DNA of 64,000 bases from Nemertoderma westbladi (lineage: Eukaryota > Animalia > Xenacoelomorpha): positions 35,686 through 99,685 of the forward strand of contig JAUCBJ010007130.1 in NCBI GenBank assembly GCA_032718475.1, read 5' to 3'. A program made the position numbers and the translations under genes. Below are positions 12,367 through 58,538 of the stretch, piece after piece (the first letter of the stretch is position 1; each line of letters opens with the position of its first letter). Under the pieces are notes generated by a model, which saw nothing but the letters and a program-made list of their open reading frames with translations, made no database searches and was not told where the DNA came from.

Positions 12367-12444
12367 CCGCTCCCAGAAAATGGGATTTGAGTCTATTAAT
12401 ATACAAAAATCACAGTTTCTAATATACGTAAATACTCTAAACCG

Positions 12445-25772: not shown

Positions 25773-25783
25773 ATGACTGTTAT
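25773..25783 (-). promoter_or_regulatory. Non-tRNA primer-binding site of B, complementary to its own LTR (26558-26568)
   Basis: Sense ATAACAGTCAT abuts the LTR; exact complement ATGACTGTTAT lies at the LTR position homologous to A's 3883-3893. Confidence 0.7.
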
Positions 25784-27049: not shown

Positions 27050-27055
27050 CTCCTC

Positions 27056-34464: not shown

Positions 34465-34470
34465 CTCCTC

Positions 34471-36972
34471 AGACAACGACGATATACATCAACTTTTTGA
34501 TGAGGAGAATGCCATCAATCTCCTTAAGGAAAGCGAGACTTGGCAAAATCAAGTGAACTTATGTCAACTCCTTCACCCATCTGAGCGAGACGACTATAAC
34601 GACGAGCTTAATGACGTCATTGAACGTTGTAATGCCAAGACTCGGGATGAACATGCCGTGAGATTCTTTACTCAAGAGGTCGTAGAGCCCAACTCCTACG
34701 ATAAGGCCCTATCGGTGGAGGAAGAAAGAGCCAAGCAGATCCAAGCGACAACTACTCGTTTTCTTAAAGATCAAGGTAGGTATGAGATCGGACTTCCTTT
34801 CCGAAAGCGAGAACCAAAGTTTATTAACAACAGACCTTTGGCGGAGAAAAGAATTGCTCAACTACATCGACGCCTTACAGCAAATTCTTCAGCTAAAGAA
34901 ATGTATAAAACACAGTTGAAGAAGTTTATTAGCAAGGGATATGCGGAGCTAGTACCGGAAGAAACCCCTATAACTGAGAGAACGTATTACTTAACTCACC
35001 ATTCCGTTCCCAAACCCGGTAAACCCCATGAAGTACGAGTGGTGTTTGACGGTTCCGCCCTTTATATGGGCCAATCTCTTAATTCTGAATTGTTACCCGG
35101 ACCCAACTTACTTCAATCCTTGTTGGGAATACTTTTAAGACTAAGACAATATTCCATTGCTTTCGCCTCAGATATAGAAGGCATGTTCTTACAAGTCAAA
35201 GCGCTGGATAGGGATCGAGATAGCCTACGATTTTTGTGGTGGCCTGAAGGAGACCTCAATAAGAAACCGGTGGAGTACTGGATGACCATCCAAGCTTTTG
35301 GGATAATCTCGAGCCCTTCAAACGCCTGTTCCGTGGTGCGCACTACTGCAGATGACAACCGAGACGCCTTCTCTAAAGAAGTGATCGACAATATCAAACG
35401 AGACATCTACATGGACGATAATCTGAAGTCCCTTCCATCAGTCGAAGAAGCCATTGAGGTCGCTAAAGGAACGGTAGAATGCTTAAAGAAAGGTGGATTT
35501 CGATTAACTAAATTCACCAGCAACTCCCGTGAGTTTCTGGAGTCAATCCCGGTAGAAGATCGAGGAACAAAAGACCTAGATCTAATAAAGGATGATCTCC
35601 CAGAAACTAAGACCCTTGGTTTGAAATGGGACACAGAAAGAGATATCCTGTTTTTCCAACTAAAACAGCGAGATAATCCAGTTCGGACTAAACGGATATG
35701 TTTAAGTATCCTGAGCACTTATTTCGATCCATTGGGATTTATTAGCCCAGTTATATTGATTGCTCGGAGTCTAGTACAACAAATGTGGCTTGAAAACCAC
35801 TCATGGGACGATCCACTTAAGGGAGAATTATTAAAGAAATGGATGAAATGGGAAGATTCTCTACCAGCCATCGAAAACTTCATAATTTCCCGTTCATATT
35901 TTGGTCATGTTCTCCCTACGTATTCATATCAACTCCATGTGTTTGGAGACGCCAGCGATATGGGAATAGGTATAGTAGCCTACCTAAGGGTGGAAACTCC
36001 GGACGGAATCAAAGTTGCCTTGGTTACTTCTAAGGCATTAATAAACAACAAGTTGAAAGTTCCTCGAGCGGAGTTAAAAGCGGCTCTATACGCTACAGCT
36101 ATCGGCCGGAATGTAACAGAACAGATCGACTATCGCCTGGAGAAAACTGTATATTGGACCGACGCTTTACTCGTGTTGGAGTATATAACCAATGAAGTCT
36201 GTCAGTTCAGCGTCTTCGTTACCAACAGAGTAGCTATTATACTCAGTCGCACGACGATGGATCAATGGAGACATTGCCCCGGAACGATTAATCCAGCGGA
36301 CATCGCTTCCCGGGGAGCAACCCCACAAGAACTGGTAGATACTCCAGACTGGTTAGGTGGACCCGACTTCCTCTACAAAGAAGAAGAAGAATGGCCTCCT
36401 CATCTTACTACAGCAGAAATTAGACAGGCCAAGGGAGCGGAGAAAGTCAAACCTAAAACTCAGGCGAGTAAATCGAAGTTATTCAAACCCACAGTAGATC
36501 TGTCTGTACTACATACTTCCGGAGACGACGCTTTGGATCAGAAACCCACAGCCACAAATAAACTCGTTGTGGAAATCCGTGATAAGGATTGGAAATCTGG
36601 CATACCTGACATCTCGCAAGGACTCTCACCTCTTCTGCAGAGAGCGATACATCACTACAGTTCTTGGAATCGGCTTTGTAAGGCCTTTACATATTTAAAG
36701 AGATGTTTTCACCATCACTACTCTAGGATGAAAACAAAGGGTGATACCGCTCCAATCACATCAGTGCAGGTCCATGTTATTAAAGACATTCCCAAATATA
36801 AGGTACCCGACAAGTTTCTGAAGGAGAAGATCAGTTATCAGGAGCATGAAGAAACCAACAAACAGATGCTGAGACTCTTACAATGCTATGAAGATTCCGA
36901 TAAGTATTTCCTGTTGTTGAGAAATCCACAGATGCGCTTAAGGGATCGTTTCTCTAGCACAATGATAGATGG
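34471..36972 (+). pseudogene. pol: Element A pol copy 2, RT-RNase H part, interrupted by element C
   Basis: Near-identical to 27056-29557; frame broken at ...STMIDG by the C LTR. Confidence 0.92.
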
Positions 36973-37509
36973 TGTGACGGGATCCAAGAGGGATCCCGAT
37001 TTATCCGGTTGTGGTAATTTAGTCCACGCGTCCCCGCCGTGTATAAGGATGAAATAAAGTGACTGAGTTCTGAAGTTCGGTGTATAATAGGAAGTTATAA
37101 GATATAGATATTGTGAATGTGTACAAGGCGGGATACGGTAACTAAAGTCCCGTGATCCCCTAACTAAACTAATTGGCTGTACCCTACGCTAGCACTGCTG
37201 CACTTGAGATAACTGAATCACTGATTAATAGGTTATTGGTTATATTGCACGGTGGCCTTACTGCTACTCAATCGATGCCGTTCCCCCCTCTGATTGGTTA
37301 ATACCCTTGTTGGCGCCCCGTGGAGTATTCCCGTTAACTCCACCTGTTCTCCTTGGGTTAGGGGTTTGGCCCCTGACCCTCTATTGTGTGCTTCCTTCCC
37401 ATTCTTATTGGGATGGCGCGAGTTGGTTAATTACCCAATCTCGCGGCTCCCAATATTGCTTATCGGCTAATAACTTTATGGGGTGTTGGCGGGATTGAAT
37501 AAGCTAACA
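36973..37509 (-). repeat. 3' LTR of element C
   Basis: Direct repeat of 47088-47624; adjacent to PPT. Confidence 0.95.
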
Positions 37510-38222
37510 CTCCCCCCCATGCTATCTTCCCGGTAAGAAGATAGCATCAACCAAAAAAAGTGCGCTACAATCCCGCTGGATCCCGATCTAGCATCGGGTG
37601 TGGGGTGGAAATCTTTTCTCTCGGAGTCGGCTTTCCGGGCCGCTCCCTCTGGGTATGATAACGCTACCCTTTACGCCTGGCGTCTCATGTCGGGCCGATC
37701 GCGCTCACCTCTTCACGCGATTTTTGTTTCCCCAACACTTTCGCCCTATCTCACCTTCACTCTCACCCTAACTCTCTCATACCCCCGGACCTCCTCGTCC
37801 CTTACTCAGCCTCTCATTCTCCCCCCCACACTAGGATTGCGTTCGCACTCTCTCCGCACTTCACTCTATCACTCTTATTCCGATTCTCAAGTCCACTTTG
37901 ACTGTTTTTATCTCTCCTGACGAACCTCCCCCCCCTCTCGTGCCGCCGCACTCAAGAAGTGTGAAATTGTCAGTTGTCTCGTCCATAGTGCCATAGTCAT
38001 TGTCCCCCAGTCCCAGTAGCTAGTTGAGAAAGGTTGTATGACTATAGTACTTACTCCAAACGTATATATTTTACTGCTAATCACTACGTACGTACATACG
38101 AATTGCACTTATATAGTTATTTGCATTAATTAAATTTATATTTAATAGTTCGTACGTTACATGCGGCGCCTTCCAGGCGCACCACCTCCCAGTCTCAGTC
38201 TCATTCCCTCGCCTCCGGGAAC

Positions 38223-40757
38223 TCATCTGTACCTCCTCACGTCCTCCTCCCTGGCCCGTTTCTTGGTTATCACTGTTCCTCTGGCATCATCCGCTTTCTG
38301 CTTCCGGACCTTCGCTGCCACTTCCTTGCTGATCCCGGTCGTCGGCTCCTTGGGCGCTGGTGTTATTAAAGCCCGATACCGCTTCGCCGGTGGCCCCTCA
38401 GAATGGCCTGGTTGTTTCCCTCGTGTGGCGTCCCATAGGATCATCTTCATTGCCTTTGGTACGTGTTCCGCCAAGAAATCCCTAAACTCCCTCCGGTTCT
38501 CTGGTGTCCACCTGTCCAGGTACCGTTGCGTGTTCATAACTCCGGCGAACGATGCCGCCGTAGCTACCTCTTGATAGGTAAACGGTAACCTTCGCTTTAT
38601 GATTTCCATGTGGGTCTCCTGGTTTATGAGGAAGAAACCCCACTTGAACTCTTGGGCCTTCATGCGCTGGCGCGTCATGGCCCCGACGTCGGCCCACTCC
38701 TCGAACCTCGTGAACTTCTCCTCGTCGCTCATCCAGTCGCACTCGCGTCCGTAGTGTCCCCGAAAGTGGCACTTTGGACATCGGTTATGCAACCGTGGAC
38801 ACGCCCCCATCCTGTGACTTGGTTCTCTACAATAGAGACAAAAGGTTCCCCGTTGGAACCGGTATAGGCAGCTGCTTTCCTGATGGGTCTGTCTCCCACA
38901 GTAGTCGCAGCCGAGTACCAATGTCTCGCGTCCCACCTCGTCCTTCGTCCCAAGCGATCTCCGCCGTCTATGGAGTCGCTGGTAGGCGAACTTCTCTACG
39001 TTGCTCTCCCTGTTTACGTCTATCTCTCCGCCCCTCTCGGGCATCGTCTCCCCGAATACTATCCGTGGTGCCGTCCCCGGTTGCTCGCCCAACCTGATGG
39101 TGCTCCCCGCGAAATCCATCGCCGGCCCCTCGTGCACCCAGGTCCGCTTGCCGGATCTGTTCCAGAAGGCCCTTGCCCCACTGGCCGTCACCACCCTTCC
39201 GCCAACCCAGTCCGTGTCCGAGTGGCCTATCCTTTCGATGGGCGGTATCTCTCCGAATTCGTCGTCGTCGTCCTCTTCTTCCGGTAGCGTCTCCAATCCC
39301 GGTATCCCGATGGATCCACTATGTCCCTTCCCGCCTTGGCTCTCGCCGGTAGCTCTCCATCCCTCTAGCTCCCTTAACTTCCTTGGCAGTTGGTCGCCCT
39401 CGGCGCCCGCTGGTATGGGCATCGTTTGCAACCCCGACGTCGACTGTTTCGGCGATCCCACCGTCCATCCCAATTCTCGTCCTAGAGACTCCCCCGAACT
39501 CCCTGACGAAGTCCAATGAAGCTCGTCTAGACCCGCCTGTTCCTCGAAGCCATAACTCTGTGTCCTGGCCTCCTCTTCCCTCTCCTCTGCTTCTATCCTC
39601 TCCCGTCTGGCGACTTCTTCCAGTCGCTTTGCTTCCCGTCTATCCATCTCTAGCTGCTCCCACCTCTGATACGGTGTATCTGTCTCCCCATCTACCAGAT
39701 GTCGGCTGTTGTAGTACACCGACTCGCCCTTCAGCCCCGGGTGGTCTACCAGACCGTCAAAGGCCACTTTAAAGGCTCTCCTGTAGCTTAGGGGTGATCC
39801 CGATAACAGAAATGCCCCTGGTTCTCTTTCGATAACTACGGTCATGAATAAGTTAAGTAAACTTATCATCATCCAGTCCTCCTGCAGGATATATCGCTTC
39901 TGATATACCTTTATCGCTCCTCTGCGAAACTGATATACCTCCTGCTTTCCCGGTCTCGCTCCCCACTTCAGCGAGTTCGCTAGTTCTGCTCCGTATTCTT
40001 CCCTAAACTTCCCCCAATCCATTGGTTTGTGGCATACGAGCCCCAATAATTGGCCCATCGCCACCGCCCCGCATTGGCCTGAGTTCTCGACCACCCCCAA
40101 TCCATCCGGTGCCGTCATAGCCATAAAGACTTTCTGCATATCCAGGAGGTTGGTGGCGTCCGGACCGATGATCCTCTCCGCGTCCTCGCGAATCGCCGAT
40201 CCCACTTTCGTCGTCGACTTCTCTCTTACTAAGACCTGTACCGCTTTCGGCAGTCGGTCTAATTTCGGCCCGTCCTTCTTCCCATACGTCCCTAAGTCGA
40301 ATAAGAAGATGTCCCCATTTGGCGCTGCCAAATGCAAGAGTATGGTCCTGGCCGACCCTGCCGTTCCTCGTCTCGAACCCGCTTCGTCTTCCACGGTTCC
40401 CTCGTCATCTAGGATCATATATCCTCCTCTGTTGACGGACTCTATGAATCTTTTCCAGTCCTTCCTCGGCGATTCCCTCGGATACTTCGGAATCCCGAAC
40501 TTCGCCTCGTCTCCTTTCACCACGTAGTGGAAGTGTTGGAAGATCGCGTTGTCCAGCGACGGCGTCCCGTAGGTCCCGACCAACCGCTGTTCGTGCGCCT
40601 CCCGGAAGTGATCCTGCAGCGCTCGTGCCGCGTGACCCCTTTCCAACCTCTCGTAGTATCCTCTCGTCTTCTCCTCCGGGTGTCTTTCGGTGAAATCCAC
40701 CAATATTTCTTTTCCTCCTGACTCCGCCTTTCTCTTCCTGACCAGCTTACTCGCCAT
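38223..40757 (-). CDS. Accessory protein of C: DEDDy (WRN/Mut-7/EXD-like) 3'-5' exonuclease, acidic linker, three CCHC knuckles and basic tail
   Basis: ExoI ILDDEG; LLHLAAPNGDIFLFDL; LPKAVQVLVREKSTTKVGSAIRED (ExoII); LLDMQ; ExoIII-like YQKRYILQED; CDYCGRQTHQESSC, CLYCREPSHRMGAC, CPKCHFRGHYGREC; uninterrupted ORF of about 844 aa from the first ATG. Confidence 0.8.
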   Translation of the reverse strand: MASKLVRKRKAESGGKEILVDFTERHPEEKTRGYYERLERGHAARALQDHFREAHEQRLVGTYGTPSLDNAIFQHFHYVVKGDEAKFGIPKYPRESPRKDWKRFIESVNRGGYMILDDEGTVEDEAGSRRGTAGSARTILLHLAAPNGDIFLFDLGTYGKKDGPKLDRLPKAVQVLVREKSTTKVGSAIREDAERIIGPDATNLLDMQKVFMAMTAPDGLGVVENSGQCGAVAMGQLLGLVCHKPMDWGKFREEYGAELANSLKWGARPGKQEVYQFRRGAIKVYQKRYILQEDWMMISLLNLFMTVVIEREPGAFLLSGSPLSYRRAFKVAFDGLVDHPGLKGESVYYNSRHLVDGETDTPYQRWEQLEMDRREAKRLEEVARRERIEAEEREEEARTQSYGFEEQAGLDELHWTSSGSSGESLGRELGWTVGSPKQSTSGLQTMPIPAGAEGDQLPRKLRELEGWRATGESQGGKGHSGSIGIPGLETLPEEEDDDDEFGEIPPIERIGHSDTDWVGGRVVTASGARAFWNRSGKRTWVHEGPAMDFAGSTIRLGEQPGTAPRIVFGETMPERGGEIDVNRESNVEKFAYQRLHRRRRSLGTKDEVGRETLVLGCDYCGRQTHQESSCLYRFQRGTFCLYCREPSHRMGACPRLHNRCPKCHFRGHYGRECDWMSDEEKFTRFEEWADVGAMTRQRMKAQEFKWGFFLINQETHMEIIKRRLPFTYQEVATAASFAGVMNTQRYLDRWTPENRREFRDFLAEHVPKAMKMILWDATRGKQPGHSEGPPAKRYRALITPAPKEPTTGISKEVAAKVRKQKADDARGTVITKKRAREEDVRRYR

Positions 40758-41259
40758 TCCGAACACTACACTCGCTCACCTGTAGGGTGGTGCCTTACCA
40801 AGGCGCAATACAGATGAGTGATGTATTAAGATGTTTCCTACAGTTCGATAATGGCCTACTTTTCTACTTAACTGCGCCTTTCAAGCTTAATTTAATCTAA
40901 TTAATTTCGGAGCTAGTAAATCAGCCTAATTTACAATTTCCGTCCGTTACTTTTATTATGTTCTAGAACGACTTTCTTTGTGTTACCATTATTTTTCGAT
41001 TTTTTTTAGCCCTATTCTATTTATTTTATTTGATTCTACTGTCCTAGTACTTACTACTGCCTATGGATTTATTCTATTCTCTCTCTGATCCATATTCTGG
41101 CCTACTCAGTGGGCCTATGCAGTACAGCAGTATGCGTCGTGTGGCCACACGATTTATCCAGCTGCACTCATATGCCCCCCTCTCGCTACTAACTCCACTT
41201 ACTGCTAACTAATATCTATATCCTATTTTACCCCTTTTACCTCTTACTCTCTCTCTCTA

Positions 41260-43310
41260 ACTAATGGTACTACGTACCCTCTAACTCTAACTCTAACTAG
41301 GTACTACGTACCTACTAGCTCTAACTCTAACTAGGTACTACGTACCTACTAACTCTAACTCTATCGGTACTACCTACCCTCTAACTCTAACTAGGCATTA
41401 CGTACCCTCTAACTCTAACTAGGTACTACGTACCTTCTAACTCTAACTCTAACTAGGTACTACGTACCTACTAACTCTAACTAGGTACTACGTACCTTCT
41501 AACTCTAACTCTAACTAGGTACTACGTACCTACTAACTAACTAACTCTAACTAGGTACTACGTACCTACTAACTCTAACTCTATCGGTACTACCTACCCT
41601 CTAACTCTAACTCTAACTAGGCATTACGCACCCTCTAACTCTAACTCTAACTCTAACTAGGTACTACGTACCTACTAACCCTCTAACTATCGGTACTACG
41701 TACCCTCTAACTAACTAACTCTAACTAGGTACTACGTACCTACTAACTCTAACTCTCTACTAAGTCTAACTAACTCCTACTAACTTTCTACTTCTACTAA
41801 CTCTACTTGACTCCTCTGAGTCTACCAACTCTGCTAACTAGCTCTACTAACTCTACTCCACTAGCTCTAACTACGTGGCGCTTGCGGTGCCCACAACCCC
41901 TTTACTATATGGCACCCTATGTGCCCTCTCTGCTCTACTCTACTACCTGGCACCCTATGTGCCCTCTCTACTACACTACTACCTCTCTAACTCTACTACC
42001 TGGCACCCTATGTGCCCTCTCTACTCTACTCTACTACCTGGCACCCTGTGTGCCCTCTCTACTACACTACTACCTCTCTAACTTACTACCTGGCACCCTA
42101 TGTGCCCGTCTCTACTCTTCTACTCTCTGGCACCCTATGTGCCCGTCTCTACTCCTCTACATCCCCTTTACGTCTCATCGCCTACACGTGACGCTCTGAG
42201 TGCCGGGAGAGTGGGTACGTTAATTATGTGAACTACTACTGACTCTACTAACTCTCTTCTAACTCTACTAACTCTTTTTGTGCCCGGCACCTCTTGTGCA
42301 CGGCACCTTCTAACTCTACTAACTCTCTACGTGGCGCTAACGGTGCCCACAACCACAACCGGTACTACGTACCCTCTTACTAACTCTACCTCTATCTACG
42401 TGGCGCTAACGGTGCCCACAACCACAACCGGTACTACGTACCCTCTTACTAACCTCTAACTCCCACTAACTCTAATTAACATACCCTGCTCTTACATCAA
42501 ACACATCATCACGCCCGTGCCCCACTAAGTTCAGCGCATTCCCTTCTAACTCTAACTACGTGGCGCTTACGGTGCCCACAACCCTCTACTGCTACTACTA
42601 ACACCCCTAACTAGCGGTACTACGTACCCTCTTACTACTCTAGCTCTCTCTACTAGCTAGCGGTACTACGTACCCTCTTACTCTTACTAACTCTCTAACG
42701 GTACTACGTACCCCTTAACTCCTACTCTCTAACGGTACTGCGTACCCTCTAACTCTTACTCTAACTCCACTAACTAACGGTACTACGTACCCTCTAACTC
42801 TTACTCTCTAATCGGTACTTACGTACCCTCTAACTCCTACTCTCTAACGGTACTACGTACCCTCTAACTCTAACTCTATCTAGGTACCACGTACCTACTG
42901 ACTCTCTAACTAACTCTAGGTACTACGTACCTACTAACTCTAACTCTAACTAGCGGTACTACGTACCCTCTAACTCTCTTCTACTAACGGTACTACACGT
43001 ACCCTCCTACTAACTCTTCTACTAACGGTACTACACGTACCCTCCTACTAACTCTTCTACTAACGGTACTACACGTACCCTCCTACTAACTCTTCTACTA
43101 ACGGTACTACACGTACCCTCCTACTAACTCTTCTACTAACGGTACTACACGTACCCTCCTACTAACTCTTCTACTAACGGTACTACACGTACCCTCCTAC
43201 TAACTCTTCTACTAACGGTACTATACGTACCCTCCTACTAACTCTTCTACTAACGGTACTACACGTACCCTCCTACTAACTAACTAACTAACTAACTACC
43301 TAACTTCTAC
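41260..43310. repeat. About 2-kb strand-biased minisatellite/hairpin array inside C, including eight 38-bp tandem units at 42981-43281
   Basis: CTCTAA/CTAA spacers separating GGTAC-TAC-GTACC and GGCAC-CCTAT-GTGCC mini-palindromes; unit CTACTAACGGTACTACACGTACCCTCCTACTAACTCTT. Confidence 0.92.
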
Positions 43311-43336: not shown

Positions 43337-46300
43337 TTAAATAATTATTTTATATTTTGTGCGTGGGAAGGGCGTCTCGCCCTCATTCCCACCCCCCTCA
43401 GTCCAAAACTTTGGACGACTAAAAACTCTCACGTGCCCCTTCTTCCGGTAGGCACTCTCCTGCTGCCCTCCTATACGTCCTCTAACTCTTCGCCACACTC
43501 TCTTCGGTGCCACCTTTGCTGGCCTCCCCCTTCGTATGTGCGCTGGCATTAAAGCCCTCGACGACCCCCGCTCGTCCCTCGGTATACGCGGTGTCTGCCC
43601 GTGCAATGCCCCCTCGCACTGTGTCCGTCCTGCGTGTGTATGCAACACGCCTCCTTCTACTTTCCCGACTCCCTTATGTTTGCTCATGGGCTTCTCTGCC
43701 CCTGGTCTAGTCCTTTCATATCCTCTCCCTTTCCAACACTCTCCGGATCTGTGTCCTTTTACCACACATCGATGACATAGTCCGTTTGCGTCTGTGTAGG
43801 CTACACGATCTCGTTTGGGCAACGCTTGCCAGTACTTGCAACTCCTGGTCTTATGGGTTCCGTCCCGATGTAATTGACATTGGAATCCTGGATTATAGCG
43901 TTTCCTGTATAGTCCTTCACGTATCGCGCTTAGGTTTATATGTACCGATTTAATGTTTTGGTTGTCTAGACTCGGCCTACTGGGTATATTGGGATTGTGT
44001 TTATTTTTGGTGTTATTTTCTTTCTGTCCCTGCCACGGTGTGGCCCTGCTCCCACCTAACTGTGGACTAGCAGTCCCCTGTACGGCCGCGTGTGGTGGTG
44101 ACTGTCCGCACGACCTGCTCTCGTCCAGGGAGTTCGATGTTCTTGCTCCTATCGGGGTATATTGTCGATATTGTGATGGGGGAATGTCACCCTGTCCCCC
44201 CCCGGCCGGTATGTTTGGTACTGGGGTTGATGTTAATACATTGGGGCCCATACGTCTATCTCCAATAACTCCCCCCTCCCCTGGATATATGTTATGTCCC
44301 TGTGTATTATAGTCATGCTGCTGTACCGATATAGGCCTACCTACCTCTCGCCTACCTACCGGTATGTACTCCGCGACTTCCGGGTTTAATTCCGTCGTTC
44401 GCGCTACCCCATCGCCTACTCTATCTCTCCCAGCATGGCCTATAATAGTATGTGCAGTAAGGCCTACAGTATGTCCTGCAGTCTGCATGTGCCCTTCCGA
44501 ACCGAAGTTTATTCTTCGCGAATCTCGAATCTCCCCGCGACTACCGTACTCTCGATCGGCAGCTATATCCCGTCGGGAAGCTTCTCTTCGATCCCCTCTC
44601 CTGTTCTCGTCTTCGTATCTGGTACGTCCTGTACCCCTCTCTTGGCGTGCGGTGCGTTTCTCCGGGGCGACGGCAATCTCCCGAAGTTCGACCCCACTGA
44701 CTCCCTAACTCCATCTCTACTATCGACGGTCCGTTATCCGTCCTCGCACTCCTATCGTTCGTGGCGACACTTCTTCTACTATCTTCTCTTCTTCTCTTTT
44801 CTGTGTAGTATTCCGGCTCGTGAGGTCTCTCGTCGACCTCCCGGTTAAACTCCACTGTTCTTCTTCCCTCTTCTGGTCGGGCTCGACGCTTCGTCTGCCC
44901 TCTCGCGACGTCAACCTGCCTCTCTCTGCTCGATCGCACGCCGCTGGGGATACTCGCAATCCCCCTATTACTCTCCGTCGCCGGCTGTTGCGGTTTACCT
45001 ATTTCGGCCCTCGCATTATCCGCTGACGGCTGTGGGACACTCTCTGCCCCCCCTCTCTCTCTACTAACTTCTCGCGGTGGGGTGTCCGTAGCCCCCCCCC
45101 ACCCGCCACTTCTAACTTCACTACCTCTTACTACACTTCTACACCCCTCTTGTGGGGCATTCTCTGCCCCCCCTCTCTCGCCACTAATCTTATGTGGTGG
45201 GGCGCCCGTAGCCCCCCCCCACCCGCCACATCTAACTTCACTATCTCTCACTTCGTCTCTACACCCCTCTCTAGTCGACGCACTGTCTCTACTACGGCTG
45301 GGTCTATTCACCCCCGCCTCTCTCTCTACTACTGCGTGGCCCATCAGGCCTACTTCGGGTTGGCTCAACCCCGCTTCCTCCTGCCTACCAACTACGTGGC
45401 CTACCAGGCCGCCGTCGGGTTGGCTCAACCCTGCCACTTCCTGCCTACTAACTACGTGGCCTACCAGGCCCTCGTCTGCTGAGTTATGTACGTCCGACAC
45501 GCTCATATTAATAGCACCATTCCCAATATTATTTGTTAAATCAATTAAATTATTAGAATTTGAAACAGGATTATTATTTAAATTATTTAAATTACTTAGA
45601 TCACTACTATTCTCTAGACTTAAATTATTATCCGAATTATTTTGCGGGTTTGAATTGAAATTATTATTTAGAGTATTTGTATTTAAATTTAAATTACTAC
45701 TACCCGGTAAAATATTATTTCCTGTAATAAAGGGATTAGGGTTATTTACTACGGTACTATTAACATTAACTGTCTCTAACGTACTACTACTACACCCCCC
45801 GCCCGTACGGCTACACCAGTTCTGGTTCTCCCGCCCGGTGCCTGTAAGTGGGGGCTCACTCTCTGATATCTCCAACCGCGCCAGTTCTAGTCGGCGCCGT
45901 TTAAGTTTGGCCCGATATTGCGCAAGCAGCGCCAGTCGGTCAAGCAAAAGATATCGCTCACGCTTTTGCTTTAACTCTCTCTCTCCGCACTCTCGGGACT
46001 CTCTCGCAAGCATCCCAGGCTGCCTCGCCGGCTCGCTCTCTATTCTCCCGGTTATTATCGCGATATGCTCCCGCTCTCTACGCTCCTCGGCCCTCTCTCT
46101 ATCCTCCCTTACCAACTCTAATAATGCGGTTTGCTCTCTCAATTGCCCCTCTAACTGTTTCCGCTCTGCCGCCGCCTTTTCTAATTTATACGCCACGCGT
46201 TCACTCTCTCGCACCCTTCTTTCTTTTGCGGAGGATGTAGCAGACTTATCGGTTGCGACGGACTCCCGTCGCCCCTCCGTCCTACTAACTTTCCCCCGCT

Positions 46301-47007
46301 TCCCGGAACTTCCTCCGACCGACGAGACCGAATCCTCGGAGTTAACCTCGGATTCGCCCTCCCCAGGTCTCTTCCAACCCACTAACCTAAATTCCCTGGC
46401 ATCGACTAAGTATGGCCCTATGTACACTACACCAGGCCCCATACCCCTACGTTCCCATAGTTTAAACAGTTCGAAGGCAACCCCTCTCGCTCTCTCCCTG
46501 GCCAGTTCTCCCTGCCCAGAACGCACTAGGTGATCAAAGTATCTGTTCGACTCACCTAGTCGTCTCCTCAGTCTCACCTCGTCTATCTTCGCCCCTCCTT
46601 TGGCCTCTCTCAGTTGCTCCCGGGTCGCGAGGTAGGCCCGTCGAAGTCGATCAGAAACCCCGACGTCCTCGTCGCCGACCTCTCCTCCATCTCTCCGGGT
46701 CCGACGTCGTACCGACGGCCCCACCGTCGCCGTTCCGGTGGACCGTTCGTCGTCCTCGGCCTGTGGCTGACCGGTGACATCGGTATGTCGACCCTCGCTC
46801 CGCGTCGACTCGTCTTTCTCTTCTCTCCGTCTCGCTCTCTCTCTCTCTTGGCTCGACTTCGGGTTCCAGGCCCTCCTCGTCCTGTGCTTCCGGTTCGCCC
46901 GTTATCGATGGCTCCGGCGTCGTGGGCCTGTATCGTTTGGTCGCGGCCTCGCGGATCGTTAGGTCTTCGTCCGGGGTCCGCGTCGGTGTCTCGCCCGATT
47001 CACTCAT
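43337..47007 (-). pseudogene. Gag-like ORF of C, split into three frames (46651-47007, 44541-46724, 43337-44488)
   Basis: Begins just after the 5' LTR; coiled-coil and low-complexity regions; C-terminal CQLHRDGTHKTRSC...LCHRCVVKGHRSGEC resembles Bel/Pao Gag knuckle spacing; apparent frameshifts near 46750 and 44710. Confidence 0.6.
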
Positions 47008-47087
47008 CTCGTTTGCTCGATGGAGTTCGACTAGCTAGGGTGGAGTTCTTTGAGTTTAACTAGGGGCGGCAGCTCGGTTTTAGTTAC

Positions 47088-47624
47088 TGTGACGGGATCC
47101 AAGAGGGATCCCGATTTATCCGGTTGTGGTAATTTAGTCCACGCGTCCCCGCCGTGTATAAGGATGAAATAAAGTGACTGAGTTCTGAAGTTCGGTGTAT
47201 AATAGGAAGTTATAAGATATAGATATTGTGAATGTGTACAAGGCGGGATACGGTAACTAAAGTCCCGTGATCCCCTAACTAAACTAATTGGCTGTACCCT
47301 ACGCTAGCACTGCTGCACTTGAGATAACTGAATCACTGATTAATAGGTTATTGGTTATATTGCACGGTGGCCTTACTGCTACTCAATCGATGCCGTTCCC
47401 CCCTCTGATTGGTTAATACCCTTGTTGGCGCCCCGTGGAGTATTCCCGTTAACTCCACCTGTTCTCCTTGGGTTAGGGGTTTGGCCCCTGACCCTCTATT
47501 GTGTGCTTCCTTCCCATTCTTATTGGGATGGCGCGAGTTGGTTAATTACCCAATCTCGCGGCTCCCAATATTGCTTATCGGCTAATAACTTTATGGGGTG
47601 TTGGCGGGATTGAATAAGCTAACA
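47088..47624 (-). repeat. 5' LTR of element C
   Basis: 537 bp; followed on the sense strand by GTAACTAAA (47079-47087), complementary to LTR positions 47253-47261. Confidence 0.95.
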
Positions 47625-47629
47625 GATGG

Positions 47630-48950
47630 GTTGATACGTGTTGGAGGAAGGTTAACGAATGCCCCATTATCCTTTGATACTAAGTTCCCCATACTCATTA
47701 GAAATCTTGAAATACAAGTCAAGATGATTGTAGATGTTCACAGCAAACTTTATCATGCTGGTAGAGAACGAGTTCTTAGCGAAATTCGAACTCGCTATTA
47801 TTTTTATAAACCCCGTAGAGCTCTGAACCAAGTTCTTAGGAACTGTATACCCTGTAGGAAAGCATTCAGTAGGCCTTTAACACAGAGAGAGGCAGAATTA
47901 CCTAGGGAACGAGTAAGCTTTTATGAACCACCCTTTACTAATACCGGTGTGGATTTATTTGGCCCTATTGAAGTATATCGTGCTAGGACTATAGTCAAGA
48001 GATGGTGTGTAATCTTTGTTTGTATGACTTGTAGAGCCATCCATCTCGATATGGTGAACGATTTATCTACCAACAGCTTTCTATTAAGCTTACGACGACA
48101 GATCGCTCGCTTTGGCACTAGTAACACGATGAGATCTGATAAGGGAACCAACTTCATTGGTGCCAACAATGAAATCAAAGCTTACGTCAAAGATTGGAAC
48201 CAAAGACAGGTGGATGACCAACTACGAGTAACAGCGTCTAGTTGGACCTTCAACGCCGCCGACGCCCCTTGGTGGGGAGGAAGTTGGGAGAGATTAATAA
48301 GAAGCGTGAAGACAGCATTTCATTTTATAGTGCCTTGCCGCGCTTATCTCACCGACGAACTTTTGCGGACGTTAATGGAAGAAATCGCCGCCTATCTCAA
48401 TGAGAGACCGCTTATGCCAGTCTCATCGAGTCCCGATTCCCTGGAAGCGCTAACACCCGTGCACTTCCTACTGAAGAAACCTGTAGCCATGCTCCCACAA
48501 TCGGAAATCACAGACGGAGACGAATACTGCCGACAAACTTGGCAACTCATGCAGTTGTTATCCCGTCGTTTCGCTGACCATTTCGAAAAACATTATCTGC
48601 CCACGCTACAACTTCGAACTAAGTGGTTTGCGCAGCAAGAAAACGTTAGCGCTGGAGACATGGTTCTTATTGTGGATGTAGATCTTCCACGTAAGAGGTG
48701 GCAGACAGGTCGTATCATCGAGACCCACATCTCGGATGACGGTTTGGTGCGATCGGTAGAACTCGTCGTCATGCGACGTAACTTCAAGAAACCGGGAATT
48801 GTCTTCGAGACGCAGCAGCTCAACCGCCCGGTGGGACGTTTATGTTTACTGGAAAGAGACAGAGAACTCTCCGGAAACTATGGGAGACAAGATACTCTTC
48901 CCACGACCACCTCCCTAATCCAACAAACATCTAGGGACTCCACAACTTAA
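47630..48950 (+). CDS. pol: Element A integrase (remainder of pol copy 2)
   Basis: HHCC, GVDLFGP, SDKGTNF, WERLIRSVK, DUF5641-like tail; resumes exactly after TSD GATGG. Confidence 0.92.
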
Positions 48951-50594
48951 CAACGGCTGGAGTGGGTGTGTGACCATATTACTTTATATTTATATTTGTT
49001 TTATTTTTATATTTCTGTATGTATTATTGTGTAATTTTATTTTAATCGTTTTATTTAATTTTATTTAGTAACATGTTATTTTAGTGATCATTTAGTAGAT
49101 TAGTGCAATATATTAGTGTTTATTACGTACGTAATTACTTATAATATATATTTAGTGCGACGGCGAGAAATAATTATTTTTCTCTTTCCTTACTGTCCGT
49201 ATCATATTATAAATACGTGACTACAGTAAGATGAAATATCCGTACTTATTAAAGTACAATAAAGCCACTACTATATTCAAGTATTATTGGTAGGCAGAGT
49301 ATTAGGAATGCAAAGTTCAGATCCTCGTGTCTCGGCTAAACCAAGCTCTGGGTAGACCTTGGAAACGACTTGCCTCTTCACACTGACATTGCTTCGTGCG
49401 ATATTGCTCTCATACCGTATATTAAATAATACATATAGTAGCGTGATGTCCCTTTAACAGTAGCGTATAACGCAAAATAAATCTGTTAAACCCTTTGACC
49501 ATCTGTAATTCTAGTCGATTAAGATATCGCGGCACCCACCGATATACTTGAAAGACAAAATTCTAGAATCAATGGTTAACGTCCCCAGACAAGTTCTGGA
49601 ATAAACTGGTGCCCATCCTAAATATTAATTATTAATATTTACAAAAATCTGTAAAATTCAGATCCTTTAAAATTCTAGCCGATTAAGATATCGTAGCACT
49701 TACCGATACTCTTAAAAGGACAAAATTCCTAGAATCAAGGATCCCAGTCCCCAGACACGTTCTGGAATAAAATTGTGTCCATTTTAATATTAAATAATAA
49801 AATTTACGGGAATAAATTTAAATTCATATATTTCAATGAATTTAATAAATTGTCATTTTATACAATTTATAACATTCCCAAAATTCCATTAATTAATAGA
49901 TCATGGGAGCAGAGATTCACTCTATTAAGTGTATTTGTGTGCGAGAATCTCCAATGTATAGTCAATAGCCGATAAAATTCATAGAATCATGTATAAAGGG
50001 GATATTGACCATTAAAGAATTACTATTAAATAGCATCCCAGATCTGTATGCATGAGAATTACCCTAATTCTACCGCTAGCTTTCCATAATGTCACCATAG
50101 CAACAACCACGCTAGAATTAGAAGTGAGTTAAAAGAACAATAGAAAGCATACCCCATTGAATAGCATAGGGAATAAATAGCGCACTGCTAGTATCCAAGG
50201 ATACATAATAAATACAGTGACATTCTGGAAGGTACTGACTAACGGACAAATGGCCCGAATGTGTGCAGTTTGTTGCAGTTGTGTTGAATTTGTGCGTTTG
50301 TAGGTGAATGTTACTACTAAAGTGTGTTTACAGTAGCGAGTCGCAATCGTGAAAGTAACCCTAACTCTCCAAGAAGAACCTGCAGTACATCTAAGCCTTT
50401 GGGACGGACAGTGAAGTGACTTGTGCCGGTTATCGTTGTCGTTGTGTAGCTACATCGTTGGCGAAAGCACAGCGACGACGGTACATCGGCGCTGAGGATC
50501 TTACACTGTCCGGGGGCAAAAGAGGGGTAGGCAGCGACGCCCGCTAGCCTAATATATATAGACTCATTATAATATTGATAAACTCATAGCAGAT

Positions 50595-53500
50595 ATGACT
50601 GAGTTGATAGAAGATGATCTTGGCATCAGGGAGCGATATACTCTACCTTTACAAGCGTTTGTCGATAGCTTGATACGCGGCGACGCTGGTCCAACTACTA
50701 CGGAGGATGATGGTCGTTATATCGAACCGTCGATCTCCCCGGAGCAACTTACGCGTGAATTGGACTATAGAAAGTTCACCGCTCGCTATACGCATCGTAA
50801 TGGTACGTATATGGACTTCTTAACTACCGGCCACCCTATCAATTTACACGATACGGACGATGTGGATACCGAAAGGGAAATGGTTTTATTTCAATATCAT
50901 ACCCAACGGAATCGGAACGATAAGCCAAGAATAGAACACGAGAACTCTATTCGAAACCGACTCGAAAGAGAAGACGTTGAAGAACCGGATAAACGCAACG
51001 ACTTCAACGATTATCTGGAATTTTTGAGAGAAACATACCTCAATATCGCCAGTCAACAAAATCTCGAAACTCGATATCCTCAAGGTATACATCATGATCC
51101 TATGATAGAACTCAAACGACTCTATTTCACTATGATGTATCTTACCGCCGATCGACCGCTACCTGTTGTCCCAGATAGCTTCGAACAGATGGAGGAATAT
51201 TGTAAAACTGGAGAACGATCACCCGCGTTTCCTCTGCAGGACATGCGTCTTTGGTATTACTGTGACGAATGCCCTAGACCCAATCAGCAAATGGAAAGAC
51301 ATAAACATCCGCGGAGACGTTGCGCTAAACACAGTTTTACACGATATACTTACGGGAGTTTCGAGCAAAACCTGTTCGACGTGTCCCCTGCGGTCGCTCG
51401 ACTCAAGCGATCCTTGAACAAACCGATGATCAGAGTTCCGGAATACTCGGTCAGACCTCCGCATTCCTCAGTTAGACCTCAAACTCTTGACCCTAATAGT
51501 ATCACGGATCCTCCCGAACTGTACTCACTGTTCAAAGATCTAGTGTTACCCGAACAGTTGATCGGTGGCACTCCGGTAATAGGCTCACAAGACATTCGCC
51601 AACCCTATCTAGCTGGATTGGGACGTGGTCATCTAATATCGCCGTTTAACCCATACAACCGTCCCGGCTTCACCTCTATCCAACCCGTTACGGAAGTCGA
51701 AGAGAGCGTCGTACGAAACGCATTAGACGCTATTTGGCAGAAAATCGGAAAGGGAACGTACGATTGTTTGGAGAAGCGTAAATTGCAGCAACAAGTCCAA
51801 GCTGTGAAGGAATTAGCTTTACCCCAGTTCGATAGAGAAATACAAAATCTCGAGGAGGACATCGAACGTGGACGAACCTACTCTTTACAAGAGTTTCTAG
51901 ATGAGCGTCTACAACAACAAGCGGAGGAGAATCAGCTCGAGGAGAGACATATAGAACTGGATGAGAGAGAAGAAGCGGCTTTAGCTCAACCAGAAGCGCA
52001 AATCCTTATGACGGATCTCTACTCTAAAACCATTCTTCATCCCTCGATGGTTCCCCATTTTGGAGACAAACTTTTTGCGACGGCACAACCCCAACCGGTT
52101 GATATCAACCTAAGATCTCGCGATCTTATCGCCGACGCTCCTCTGTTGCAGCGTCCGCCCATCGAACCCGCTCGTGTCGATGGTATACTCGTTGAACCTC
52201 CGGACAATAGAGCAGATCTTGTCCGTCGCATGGTACACGATGTAAACATACGCGCTAGACCTTTACCGGACTCGTTTTATGGGATCAAAGATCACCCTTA
52301 TTACGTCAATCTAAAACAATATTACATGGTAAAACCGGAAGATCCTACACATAGTCTGAAGTTTCTACCGTTAATAAATCCTCTCGATCTTGTCGAACTC
52401 GAACAACTGCAGAAACATCTGGATCAGTTAGTTAAAGTAAACTCGTTTCGAAAACCATATAATGTTTCCAGAATAGAGAAAGAAACAATACCTCCATATA
52501 ATCTTGATGGATTCATCAAAACTCGTTTAGTGCACTGGAATCTTGATGTGTTATTCGAGGAGGAAAGAATACAACGATATGGAGATGTGGAAACATATAC
52601 CACACAATATTTAAAGTATAAAGACCTGCCTAATGCTAGCGAATGTGCTACCTTATGGCATCCTGTGGGAATGACACTCGAAAACGCCACTAAAGAGTGG
52701 AACGAAACTCTTAACGTTATCGAGATGTATGGAGTTGTCACTTACGATAACGAAGGTAGCGTTCCGGTTGGAGAACTTGGAACTACGCGGATGATACACA
52801 TACGAGGACTCGCTGGTTCTACCCACGTATTTACTCGAGCGTGTTCCGACGTTATTGATTATTCTTTTGAAACTCTTACTGAGATACAAAAGAAACTCCG
52901 ACATGGACAATTTGAACTCGCGCAGCGTTACGTCACCGACACCGAGCGCAAGCCGGCTATGGGTCGATGTTCGATGGATCGATGTTACCCCAACCCGTGC
53001 TCGAGATGCTGTTTAACGAAGGAATCCTTAAAATCGGCTCAGCTGTTTATGGAGACCTACAGAACGACTTTTGGAATATGGAGAACATTCCATACCCCTT
53101 CGTTGATACTCAGCTGATTGCTCCTTGGGCAGAAGGCCGAGGTTTCTTCCGCACTACGTATGCCAATACACCCAGCGGAATTACCAAAGTACAACGAACC
53201 TCCATCGGACATCTTGCCTTTCAAGAATACGGATGGAATTTCAAGGTTGGAAATCCTATAAATTACCAACAAGTATACGGAGATCATTATTCTCGTTTAT
53301 ACTTTGATGGACCATTGACCGCACCTGGCGCCGTGTATAGCTTTATGAGTGTTCCACTTCGTCCCTCCTTAGCTATATACACGATCTTTGAAAACGCAGC
53401 ACTTGCCGGTTGGCTAGCCGATGTGTGCAGTCGTACCATACGCGCCCATCCTTTAATACTTGGAACCAAACTCGCCAAGTTAGATGAACACAATAAATTC

Positions 53501-54853
53501 ATCCGCTTTGAATGTTTCAGGCGCTTTCTGACTCCGTTCCGTAACGTGGATAGTCAGTTCAAGGACCGCGCTCTGACCAAACTCAGCCTGAGAGACTCAG
53601 CGGCGGAGAAGCTAAACAGCGCGGGATTTGCCCTTTTTCAGAACGTTTGTATACAGAACTTGCACTCATCTGTTATACAAAGACCCCGAATACCCGCGGG
53701 TTATTCTGTCGTCGGAGTTCAGACAGTGGGTCCGCTTGCAGAGACAGCCGCACCTAACTCAACTATGCAATTGGAAGACGAACCAATATGCTTAGAAGCT
53801 GAAGCGATTCAGCCTATAGCGCCCCGGAGCAGCGATAACGACTACGTCTTAGAGTGGTATCAAGGTTCACAATGTCTCACCGCATACGATTATCGACACG
53901 CTAGCTATGTTTCTCGAAAACGTTGTCGATTATGCGCATCGAGAGACCATTTCACTCCTATGGACTCAGACGTACCCTGCTCCTATTTCCACGATCAACC
54001 AATGATGGAGATATATTGTGCGTATTGCAGACTTAATAACTCTCATATTTTTGCAGTCTGCCCCCAATTTATGACTCAATGCCACCACTGTCAACTTAAA
54101 GGACATGCCAGTTATAATTGCCCCTTTAATCACGATTTAGAGAGCGTAGATGAAATGATTACCCTGCGCTACATTCGAGCTTGGGAAGCGAACGCGGATT
54201 TACATTGTGAGTCCCGTCATCGATACTACCCTGGACGCTCTTACGAGGGAGTTTACGCGTTCCATCCTTATTTATTAGCGTCTGTGGAACAAAAAACACG
54301 CGTACCGAGTTACGAGCTAATGAAGCGTGTTGGTGAGTGTATTTCCACTAAATTTGTTAGAAGATACCTTAGGAACGTCAATCCTAACGATATTACTTCA
54401 TACCATTTAATCAATTATATCCGTCAAGACCCTGAGTATGGCGATTTATTTATCAACTCGCACCCTGAGTTACAGGAAGTATCTCGACGGCCCTACGAAT
54501 ATCGAGCCCGAGAACGCGAGCTGGAAAGAACTATTAAACCAAGGAAGTTTCTTATCACCCACGGTCCGCCTACCGCCATTGCCCAGACGACCCGTCAAGG
54601 ACCCGTAGGAGCTGCTGTCCTGAGGCGCGCCCTAAAGGCTGTTAGACCTCGCTCCACGGAAGTTGATATCGATCAACCAGGTACCTCGACCGGCGGATAT
54701 ACCGATCGCAATCCGAAACCTTCTGATGCAATTGTATTGCACCCTTCACCCAGGAGTTACAGCCCTCCTAGTAAAGTGGCTCGCCCCAAAGAGAAAAGGA
54801 CTCTTACTAGCCTCAAAAAACTGCGTAAACGCCGTCCGCGTAAGAAAGACTAA
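50595..54853 (+). CDS. Accessory ORF2 of A (about 1419 aa, one frameshift near 52830-52970): unknown N-terminal region, DEDDy 3'-5' exonuclease, triple CCHC knuckle, NLS-like tail
   Basis: ExoI VTYDNEG; LPQPVLEMLFNEGILKIGSAVYGD; FVDTQ; ExoIII-like AIYTIFEN; CRLCASRDH..C, CAYCRLNNSHIFAVC, CHHCQLKGHASYNC; KKLRKRRPRKKD end; lies between integrase and PPT. Confidence 0.8.
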
Positions 54854-54931: not shown

Positions 54932-55560
54932 TGTAAAAGCTTTTGCGTCATTAACCGGTTATTTTCCCTTAAAGTACTCTGTAGTTGGTTTGCCAGGCAT
55001 AAAAAGGCCGTCCTTGCTGTACTGGTGTTTTAGAGGACATAAAAGTCATTTCTTCTGTATTTGTACTGTATTTGTACTTTAGAGGACATAATCCGCAATC
55101 TCGTGACGCGATAAGCTGGATACTCTTGAAAACAGTGTCGCTACCATGACGACGGCTAACAGCTGATATTGCCACGTCAACGTTTCTTTGTTTCTTTGTT
55201 CTCTCGTTGTTCAGGTTGACCAATCAGAGCGTTTGTTGTCTCTGTGTTGGAGGTGTATACAGAACTCAGTAGTTCAGTGTTATGTTTTTTGCCCAGAGCC
55301 TAAGAACACCGGCTTTTGGCACCTCCGTGTTTCAGTCTTTAGTCTTACATTAGTAGGCTTAATTATAGAACGTATATCTGTTATCAAACTAGTTACTGAG
55401 TTAGTCACTCACTTAATAATCATTTATACCTTAACTTTACTGCTTTTACTGTCGGTTATTCATTATATTGGTTGATGAAATATTATATCGGAATACTGAT
55501 CAATAGTCAGACACCCCAACTTCTTGATATACTAAAGGTTAGAGAGACCGGTTACAGATA
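54932..55560 (+). repeat. True 3' LTR of A, first 629 bp only
   Basis: Preceded by PPT-like TCTGGGAGCGG; matches 3441-4068; ends in (ACAGATA)x5 junction. Confidence 0.92.
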
Positions 55561-55585
55561 ACAGATAACAGATAACAGATAACAG

Positions 55586-58538
55586 ATACAGTGGGTTACC
55601 CACAAATATTGTACATTGTTATTTAAAATAGGAATTTCATCATCCAATTTTGTAAAACACTCGAGGAAACTTATTTACATCTTTTCTGGGAGTGTGAAAC
55701 TGTGACAAAATTAATTAATTGATGAATTTAAATTGTGCTGGTTAAAATCACAAAACAGTCATTCATTCTCACAAAGCTTTCAATGTTGTTTGGGTACCAC
55801 ACAAAAGTGCCGTCAATCGTTAATTGCGTCCTATACAGTTACTAAGATACTATATATTTACTGCGAAAAATTCCAACATACTCAGTCTCTACAAATATCT
55901 GTTTTTCTACAGTTCTTTCTGCAGTTCAGGAATCAAAACTTTGCATTTTTGAGGAAAAATGGATTAATTTTTAAGATAAAATGTGGGATTCCGAGTCCTA
56001 ATAATAGTGCATTTTAATATAATATGGTGATCTACTTTTGTCATTATGTTATCTTACCTGCGCTACTTAAGCATCTAATACTGTGTAGCTAATAATAACC
56101 TATGATGTAGGGGCTTACTATAGGAAACCAGGTTTTTTATCATATCAATAAGGCGCTGCTGTAGGTTAACTGTATTTAATCACACTACTCTAGTAATACA
56201 CCATGACCCGTAATATAGTGTCATTTTCTGATGACACGGACATCCCCCCGCCCCCCCCCCCCCCAAATTTTTCTACACATCTTTATCATATTGCTTGAAA
56301 TTTGAAACACAACTACAGTAGTTCAACTCACTCAACTCACAAACTTCTGGTTGTTACCATGAAGCCGGAATTTTCGATTTCGCCTTTAAATTTTTTTATA
56401 AGCGTTTTAAAAAAGTGTCTTTTACGAAATTGCACATCTCCTATCAACGCCATTCTTCACATTAAACTCGCTTCATAGATATTATTAAAAACCAAATATG
56501 TAACAAGTAACAATATCTGAATTTCGTTGAGAAACAGCTGAGAAATAGGCGTTCAAAGATTGCAAAAATTATCGTTCGCTGCAAGACATTTATTCTATTT
56601 AATAAGTACACGATGTTCTGGAACAATTTGTTTATGTATGATTAGCTACGCAATATAGATATTGTATAGGCATACGACCATGGCCTACTATATATACGGC
56701 CTAACATGTTATCGATTTGTCTTAAAAAAGAGGCCAGTTTTTTTTACACTATTTTAATATTTTGATATGGGGAGAGTTCTATAAATTGTCATTTGCTGCA
56801 ATTTGGTCAACGGACGTAATTGAAGTATCTTCATTAAGCAAGATACTAAATTGTATGGTAGCTAGTGTTTTAGATAGGTTTAGCTAGTAATTTCAACACT
56901 GGTTCCGACATCCTACTTCCCTCTATAAATTTTTTGTAGTAGCTAGTTCTTGTTACTATTTGTATAGACAATGTTCCAGAACATGTTCGCTATTCATTTT
57001 AAGAACAAATCACGTTCTAGAACGAATCTTTTTTGTTCTAGAACATTTTTTAGAAAAAAATCTAGATTGTATTTAAAACGCATGGAATCGTTCTAAAACG
57101 TGTTTAAAATCAATAAAAAAAAATTTCAAAATTTTTTTTTCAAAAAATTTTATTCACAATATTTTTTTTTTATTTTTTTGAGGATTTTAAACACGTTTTA
57201 GAACGATTCCAAGCGTTTTAAATAGAATCCAGATTTTTTTTAAATGTTCTAGAACGTAGGATGTCGTATGAACTTTCTAGAACGTAGAATGTAGGATGTC
57301 GGAACCAGTGTTGAAATTACTAACTAAACCTATCTAAAACACTAGCTACCATAAAATGTAGTATCTTGCTTAACGAAGAGACTCTCCCCATATCAAAATA
57401 GTGTAAAAAAAACTGGCCTCTTTTATTAAGGCCAAATCGATAACATGTTAGGCCGTATATATAGTAGGCCATGATGCGACTGTTGCCAACCAACTCATAA
57501 AATAAATAACACGTTCTAGAATTTTGTGTATTTATTAGATAGAATAAATGGGATGCAGCGATCAATAATTCTTGCAATCTTTGAACGCCTATTTCTCAGC
57601 TGTTTCTCAACGAAATTCAGATATTGTTACATATTTGGAATACTAGAACGCAAGCTTTTTAATAATATCTATAAAGCGAGGTTAATATGAAGAATGGCGA
57701 TGATAGGTGATGTGCAATTTCGCAAAGACACTTTTTTAAAACGCTTATAAAAAAATGTAAAGGCAAAATCGAAAGTTCCGGCTTCATGTTAACAACCACG
57801 GTGGGTGGAACTACTGTAGTTGTGTTTCAAATTTCAAGCAATATGATAAAGATGTGTAGAAAAATTTGGGGGGGGGGGGGGGGGGGGGTGTCCGCGTCAT
57901 CAGAAAACGACACTATATTACGGGTCATGGTGTAATTACATTTTTTTTATGGGAGGTTATTATCTAGAATTCTAGAAGGTAAAATATTGAAAAAAGTCGT
58001 ACCGGTACAAAAAGACTCGTATATGGTGATAAGATTACGTCACCACGCATAGATACTGTACTAGGCTATCCATTAACTAATTAACTATCTATTTCGTATT
58101 ACTTTTTGTGTAATTGCTTGTTGTGTAAAAGTTATATCTGTCGATGCGAATTTGAATTTAATTGGTGCAGCTCTGATAAATATTTATGGATTGAAAAAAA
58201 AAACTATTTCAAACATATTCACACAGTTTCTATACCGGAAGCAATATTTTTTATCCGATAACAAAGTCTAAGGTGGTCGGTCTCCGCGGGCTTTCAGGCG
58301 ACACCGACCAAGATGTCATCTTTATATTCATATGGAGTTAATATTCATATGCGCCACTGCGTATCAAAAAGTGAAAAGGGGATGGGGCAGGGACAGGTTG
58401 ATTTTCGTTTAAAGGGTCTAGGGCTAGGCTGGACCAGGGTACATCTCAGCCATGCATCCTTAAATGGTCGCTTTATATGAGTACTTTCTCTTAGAATGTA
58501 GAAGCACGAGGGACGACACTCGAAATAAAGACTCTACT
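55586..58538 (+). repeat. Duplicate of A's upstream flank (1227-3440)
   Basis: Same ORFs recur (1374/55733, 3366/58464); includes LINE remnant, foldback element and left CTACT. Confidence 0.93.
56199..57932. mobile_element. Full-length foldback DNA transposon (1.73 kb, nearly fully palindromic, TA TSD; Tc1/mariner-like non-autonomous)
   Basis: Inverted arms extend to a short AT-rich centre near 57110-57185; TA on both sides; no transposase ORF. Confidence 0.85.

Follow-up and report, generated by a model that had tools for sequence, protein, structure and literature searches.

Described BEL elements are primed by tRNA, and a self-encoded primer has reportedly been proposed for Cer7, a nematode BEL element. 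In Tf1, the RNA's first 11 bases pair with the primer-binding site (PBS) and the cut made by RNase H follows base 11 (PMC7175516), and the leader has been described as a three-duplex 'pretzel' (10.1101/2022.12.06.519325). Self-priming has also been predicted for the Tcn1 chromoviruses and for the TAR lineage (Houba, Osr-1) of copia elements (PMC6317226), and the accessible part of that paper mentions neither BEL/Pao nor an intron-built primer. In the literature covered, part of it in partial text, self-priming is placed in the gypsy elements of the Tf1/sushi group and in a small number of plant lineages. The terms primer, PBS and tRNA do not occur in the accessible text of the BEL/Pao review PMC3118150 (term search), and no title or abstract opening on BEL/Pao self-priming was found in a search that was thin on subscription papers and excluded supplements.

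The window (the whole stretch of 64,000 nt that was analysed) is a nest of young LTR elements, with A on the minus strand, B on the plus strand and C on the minus strand. A and B are BEL/Pao elements with Pfam matches to Peptidase_A17, DUF1759, DUF5641 and the integrase zinc finger; database proteins match their pol at no more than about 46% identity, and no close relative of B pol was found in viral contigs or metagenome contigs. A is nested in B, with a 6-bp duplication. B pol is interrupted by C, as the pol ORF 34409-37057 enters the C LTR and continues from 47625 onwards. C lies on the minus strand in a duplicated copy of B pol. The tandem duplication of 7415 bp (23677-36972 and 47625-49161, 99.9%) comprises the A leader and LTR plus B pol, and the insertion of C postdates it, having landed in the second copy. 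The architecture of C is as follows.

47088-47624, minus strand: 5′ LTR of C, 537 bp, 100% identical to 36973-37509
36973-37509, minus strand: 3′ LTR of C, 537 bp, paired with the 5′ LTR
47625-47629 and 36968-36972: 5-bp target-site duplication (TSD) GATGG flanking C
37510-37518, minus strand: polypurine tract (PPT) abutting the 3′ LTR
44541-46901, minus strand: long ORF at the gag position, no family match
43337-44704, minus strand: Gag-remnant ORF with a BEL/Pao-type double zinc knuckle (profile E 3.4e-8; BLASTP against A Gag E 6e-4)
41255-43305: tandem-repeat arrays at the usual place of pol
38223-40775, minus strand: last ORF, with three Cys/His knuckles and a possible 3′-5′ exonuclease-like region

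With its paired TG...CA LTRs, its TSD and its PPT, C is a recently inserted LTR element. Pol, the mark of an autonomous BEL/Pao element, is present in A and B but absent from C: a Pfam search of four C ORFs found no PR-RT-RH-IN domains, including Peptidase_A17 and DUF5641.

The sites on which priming of C would depend lie in and just past the 5′ LTR.

47079-47087, minus strand: PBS position, GTAACTAAA, without TGG; its first base directly follows the 5′ LTR
47253-47261, minus strand: candidate self-primer 3′ end, TTTAGTTAC, at LTR positions 364-372 of 537, with a second copy at 37138-37146 in the 3′ LTR
47326-47360, minus strand: TATA-like ATATAA (47360) and TCAGT initiator-like motifs (47339, 47331), of putative function

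The initial annotation had described a PBS without TGG whose complement lies inside the LTR, and both points held. The PBS is exactly complementary to 47261-47253, in register with the LTR end, and TGG, expected of a tRNA-type PBS, is absent from the first 200 nt past the 5′ LTR. The 9-mer is found three times in the window, at the PBS and once in each LTR. An anchored complement of at least 9 nt arose in 24 of 5000 dinucleotide shuffles of the C LTR (p about 0.005), and for 28 of the 9570 9-mers inside C a complement exists in the LTR; across the whole window the 9-mer count is unremarkable (13 of 100 shuffles). The annotation's caution that nine nucleotides in an AT-rich context are weak evidence alone was apt, as 7 of 374 non-cognate pairs reach 9 nt and the 60 offsets scanned hold one other 9-nt match, at offset 40. 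The primer:PBS duplex has a predicted energy of -7.3 kcal/mol and, with 9 bases, is shorter than those of all 21 positive distant relatives described below and of A and B. A splice-built primer was sought as a junction-spanning match of at least 9 nt across a GT-AG intron in the LTR, and none was found in C, A or B. The window contains no tRNA gene, and an Rfam search returned a single, sub-threshold miRNA match.

The complement had been placed 70-80 nt downstream of the TATA and TCAGT-like motifs, which is right for the two TCAGT motifs (78 and 70 nt) but not for ATATAA (99 nt). A spacing of about 31 nt between TATA box and initiator is typical of the general promoter consensus. ATATAA precedes the A of the second TCAGT motif by 31 nt, and this spacing suggests that transcription of C starts near 47329. 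The complement thus seems to lie about 68-70 nt inside the transcript, unlike that of Tf1, as both the promoter motifs and the predicted helices 2 and 3 (below) suggest. The motif CCAATCAGAG at 47412-47403 is common to the C, A and B LTRs, where it precedes the primer start by 151, 163 and 153 nt, and is not significant by E-value.

A and B each carry a self-complement of 11 nt, the length found in Tf1. For the two copies of A, it was equalled in 2 and 4 of 5000 shuffles; in B it goes with the LTR end at 4607. When A (27049-25773, minus strand) is compared with B (3441-4618, plus strand), the complements differ by two double-sided changes, and they lie 714-774 nt before the LTR end. TTATAG stands five bases upstream of the primer in both. 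In the folding model, the A duplex forms only when the RNA starts at the primer and the B duplex does not form, and in modelled full-length RNAs both duplexes are mostly absent. A search of genome contigs with a 23-nt pattern of LTR end and PBS found no close relative. The annotation had regarded the C PBS as completely different from that of A and B, which proved too strong: it agrees with A at 4 and with B at 5 of 9 positions, TAAC at +2 to +5 among them.

Distant loci were the best 80 of 507 confirmed BEL/Pao stretches from an alignment search. Direct repeats were present in 32 of the 80, and 28 of these were tested (L013, L042, L062 and L066 were left out) with a complement search that permitted a GT-AG intron within the LTR. 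A self-complement of 10-15 nt was found in 21 of the 28 loci, in about 15 distinct groups, spliced in 18 and contiguous in 3. Where the LTR end was given by the repeat (17 loci), 11 have a 10-15-nt complement 0-3 nt from the end; where the end was picked from 6-17 scanned candidates per locus (10 loci, runner-up 5-9), 8 passed; permitting a larger offset brought in L051 and L050. For most groups the register departs from the LTR end by 0-4 nt. The complement ends 3′ in AC or AT at 21 of 21 loci, compared with TAC in C and TAT in A and B. As a control, non-cognate pairs in a 20 x 20 matrix, which left scanned-end loci outside, were searched as permissively and reached 9 nt in 7, 10 nt in 3 and 11 nt in 0 of 374 cases; the row and column of C reach 8.

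In 18 of the 28 loci, as predicted from DNA, the complement is completed only across a GT...AG intron of the LTR (L003, L004, L005, L007, L015, L020, L021, L023, L024, L025, L031, L038, L043, L052, L065, L067, L068 and L074). Seven of the 28 had no such self-complement, and in three of these the LTR end itself is doubtful (L049, L059, L079). Three of the seven have a TGG starting close after the LTR end (L040 at +2, L059 at +1, L077 at +7), and because they combine this with the lack of a self-complement they may be tRNA-primed. In an RT tree of the 80 loci with A and B (rooted at the midpoint without an outgroup, and with weak support for deep nodes), the self-type loci are scattered and A and B form one clade.

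At the level of sequence, then, a complement in register and a missing TGG recur in the same arrangement in C, A, B and the distant loci; the nine bases of C are modest alone, yet they fit a superfamily-wide pattern found on separate loci. Since C and 21 of 28 relatives carry a complement of the PBS in their own LTR, it is likely that RNA of the elements themselves starts DNA copying in this group. We therefore consider it likely, with a probability of roughly 0.7, that C, a pol-less element of likely BEL/Pao descent, primes reverse transcription with its own RNA and not with a tRNA.

RNA folding, which the initial annotation had proposed as a check, agreed with this reading in the model. Central primer:PBS pairs had probabilities of 0.81-0.83 for five starts (LTR 265 to 330); over 27 combinations of start and end the value was mostly about 0.8, with 0.23-0.5 for some near-primer starts and 0.01 in one. 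The primer:PBS pairing is predicted to be held by two longer helices, and the predicted elements of the fold are the following.

47272-47285, minus strand: predicted clamp helix 2, 5′ strand, 14 bp with two G-U, pair probability 0.87-1.0, -16.0 kcal/mol
47053-47066, minus strand: predicted helix 2, 3′ strand, downstream of the PBS
47296-47308, minus strand: predicted clamp helix 3, 5′ strand, 12 bp with one bulge
47030-47041, minus strand: predicted helix 3, 3′ strand, downstream of the PBS
47144-47252, minus strand: predicted helix 4 (47252-47237 with 47158-47144), immediately 3′ of the primer and enclosing a variable loop
47093-47113, minus strand: predicted U5 hairpin of 8 bp, whose end lies 5 nt before the PBS

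Helices 2 and 3 would connect the LTR upstream of the primer to sequence past the PBS. When primer and PBS were removed, the flanking 60-mers alone still gave -38.9 kcal/mol, a value equalled by 5 of 500 shuffles and by none of 377 internal windows. The same test gave 314 of 500 for A and 212 of 500 for B, and 7 of 8 distant loci exceeded 20 of 500, with only L058 (11 of 500) coming near the result for C; the upstream clamp of C is not general among A, B and the distant loci. The whole leader with 60 nt downstream folded better than 195 of 200 shuffles, and the 286-nt leader with about 38 nt downstream gave a modest fold (z -1.43, 14 of 200 shuffles as good).

C resembles Tf1/Tf2 and the Tf1/sushi group (Ty3/gypsy chromoviruses) in having no tRNA site, a PBS complementary to its own LTR RNA and a multi-duplex leader (PMC7175516; 10.1101/2022.12.06.519325). 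In Tf1, however, the primer is the first 11 bases at the RNA 5′ end, whereas the C complement has 9 nt and apparently begins about 68 nt past the putative start. The extra duplexes of Tf1 use the LTR downstream of the primer, whereas the two strongest predicted for C use the LTR upstream, so that only the U5 hairpin fits a pretzel and the strand past the PBS pairs upstream of the primer. C also has no RT/RNase H of its own and no Ty3/gypsy chromovirus pol. Because it belongs to another superfamily, has different extra duplexes and has an apparently internal primer, C is not a member of the Tf1/sushi group. TAR and Tcn1 are plant copia or gypsy lineages, unlike C, and in the accessible text self-priming outside Tf1 is predicted from sequence (PMC6317226).

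Variation in the C family was read from contigs, in which starts and ends cannot be seen; they came from five DNA runs on three samples. There were 30 substitutions at 28 places in 47040-47300, 17 of the 28 at 47163-47240 and none listed at 47241-47300. Positions predicted to be paired varied less often (4 of 109) than unpaired ones (24 of 152; Fisher p=0.002), a count that includes linked changes more than once. This lower variation fits the helices and could have other causes of conservation. Two substitutions fall in the PBS, at 47083 (about 10% of depth in X1 and X3) and at 47081 (about 6.5%), and both retain pairing as G-U, which is weak evidence because 6 of 9 possible transitions would do so. 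Variants 47102 and 47105 lie in the loop of the predicted U5 hairpin. In helix 3, among the rows listed, the common variant 47030 converts G-U to G-C, and the rarer variant 47039 would disrupt a pair with no change at its partner. No compensatory double-sided change was seen in the C-family contigs, which are too short to tie a diverged PBS to its own LTR. One X4 contig covers both the PBS and the primer site; it carries 9 substitutions and 32 gaps, none of the listed X4 changes falling at either site. An X4 contig departs at 47086, keeping the C LTR end with different letters at the PBS position, and is possibly from a C subfamily with another primer. The self-complementary PBS logic that the annotation had seen in C is thus backed by the predicted fold, by conservation in the C family and by the distant BEL/Pao loci.

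The same annotation had called the C LTR unrelated to that of A and B and had counted C as independent support. There is indeed no significant LTR DNA similarity (best E 0.65), but C probably belongs to the same superfamily, and its independence is probably wrong, given the BEL-type Gag knuckle and the TAAC shared in the PBS. The Gag knuckle of C matches a profile of 47 distinct BEL knuckles (E 3.4e-8), its linker has 20 residues as in 47 of 47 BEL sequences, and when 389 window segments were ranked by the profile only the A and B Gag stood above the C ORF. The third knuckle is absent, and the other knuckle ORFs of C and B do not match the BEL knuckle profile; the knuckles of the last C ORF resemble those of the B third ORF at 52916-54853 (E 5e-7). 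In common with BEL/Pao (Belpaoviridae), C has TG...CA LTRs, a 5-bp TSD, a PPT and the Gag knuckle spacing, but it lacks pol. Because C is pol-less and carries both a BEL-type Gag knuckle and a B-like knuckle ORF, it is probably a divergent, non-autonomous derivative of BEL/Pao. It follows that C probably backs self-priming of A and B as a case of deep covariation and not as a second origin. Because its LTRs are identical, a TSD is present and pol is absent, we infer that C was mobilised in trans by a BEL/Pao RT and integrase.

A third ORF region with knuckles follows pol in B (50562-54853, plus strand), with a remnant in A (about 12350-13740, minus strand), and we take it to hold an exonuclease-like motif. 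It has no Pfam match and no counterpart among the best 80 BEL loci. For the last ORF of C, an Atlas look-alike in the PF01612 cluster (score 0.93) is a lead only: searches of Pfam and PDB gave no match, one repeat match was uninformative, a single-sequence structure model had a pLDDT of 33, and 0 of 7990 candidates in the protein database were close relatives. A DEDDy 3′-5′ exonuclease-like ORF3 occurs in the bdelloid LTR elements Vesta and Juno, which belong to other lineages (PMC5408684).

If C is self-primed, transcription would begin near 47329 and the leader would fold back, so that 47261-47253 pairs with the PBS and is clamped by helices 2 and 3. A helper BEL/Pao RT-RNase H acting in trans would then cut after ...TAC, leaving a 3′-OH opposite PBS +1 on a primer strand about 77 nt long; RT would extend the minus strand through U5 and R back to the cut.

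An alternative is that the fold is a real leader structure serving packaging, dimerisation or translation control, and that the primer is a host RNA, for instance a half-tRNA or some other small RNA. It would suit this view that helices 2-4 exceed the primer duplex in stability and equal it in conservation, and half-tRNA PBSs without TGG do exist in copia elements; in the accessible part of the source, however, those cases are copia only (PMC6317226). About 15 groups have differing PBSs, for each of which the group's own LTR supplies the complement, with a shared AC/AT end; one host RNA could not fit all of them, which leaves this alternative unlikely.

We also consider improbable a self-derived primer acting in trans, in which a separate short LTR transcript (from solo LTRs, for example) is cut or trimmed to ...TAC and anneals through the 9+14+12-bp helices. 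Such long clamp helices would stabilise an intermolecular duplex, the summed depth of contigs over the LTR far exceeds that just inside it (a depth that is not a copy number), the primers of relatives require splicing yet their LTR retains the intron, and the possible 3′-5′ exonuclease-like ORF in C and B offers a lead towards trimming. Against this, a cis fold is available and favourable, no ORF3-like match exists among the best 80 BEL loci, many of which have a primer site, and the exonuclease call lacks Pfam or PDB support. Chance in AT-rich sequence is less probable still: the match is short and weak, with a near-copy TTTAGTTAG 22 nt upstream besides the matches already noted at offset 40 and among non-cognate pairs, but its anchored p is low, its register and AC end are those of the relatives, and its duplex is nested between conserved predicted helices at a site with no listed substitutions in four runs.

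Returning to self-priming by C's own RNA, we tentatively extend it to a wider picture, which we hold to be possible rather than probable. Much of BEL/Pao would self-prime with an AC/AT end, in most of the lineages sampled from an intron-spliced primer, and C would be an intron-free variant with a 9-nt internal primer and a 9+14+12 bp clamp, released by an internal cut or by 3′-5′ trimming with its own nuclease and processed in trans by a helper with a different primer sequence. If self-priming holds for animal BEL/Pao, tRNA-free priming would occur in all three LTR superfamilies, which bears on which mode of priming came first; whether self-priming preceded tRNA priming is asked in PMC3601003, here in its accessible part. 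It would also account for the PBS calls that BEL annotation lacks and link priming with host splicing, and BEL/Pao would be predicted to be insensitive to tRNA-fragment silencing. C would then be a passenger element in which the priming logic persists with other letters and with a primer that is apparently internal, and it offers a testable case.

Elsewhere in the window, a solo LTR of B with a 5-bp TSD lies at 58539-59708, and a partial LTR at 1-1007 is 81% similar and differs in the primer-position letters, with its PBS beyond the window. The 3′ LTR of B is truncated at 55553-55589 in a brief stretch of tandem 7-mers that match the beginning of the B PBS, and the repeat adjoining the cut LTR, 55586-56849, equals 1227-2489. 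A short, intronless, host-like reading frame at about 61770-62220 (plus strand) presumably resembles CCDC12/Cwf18.
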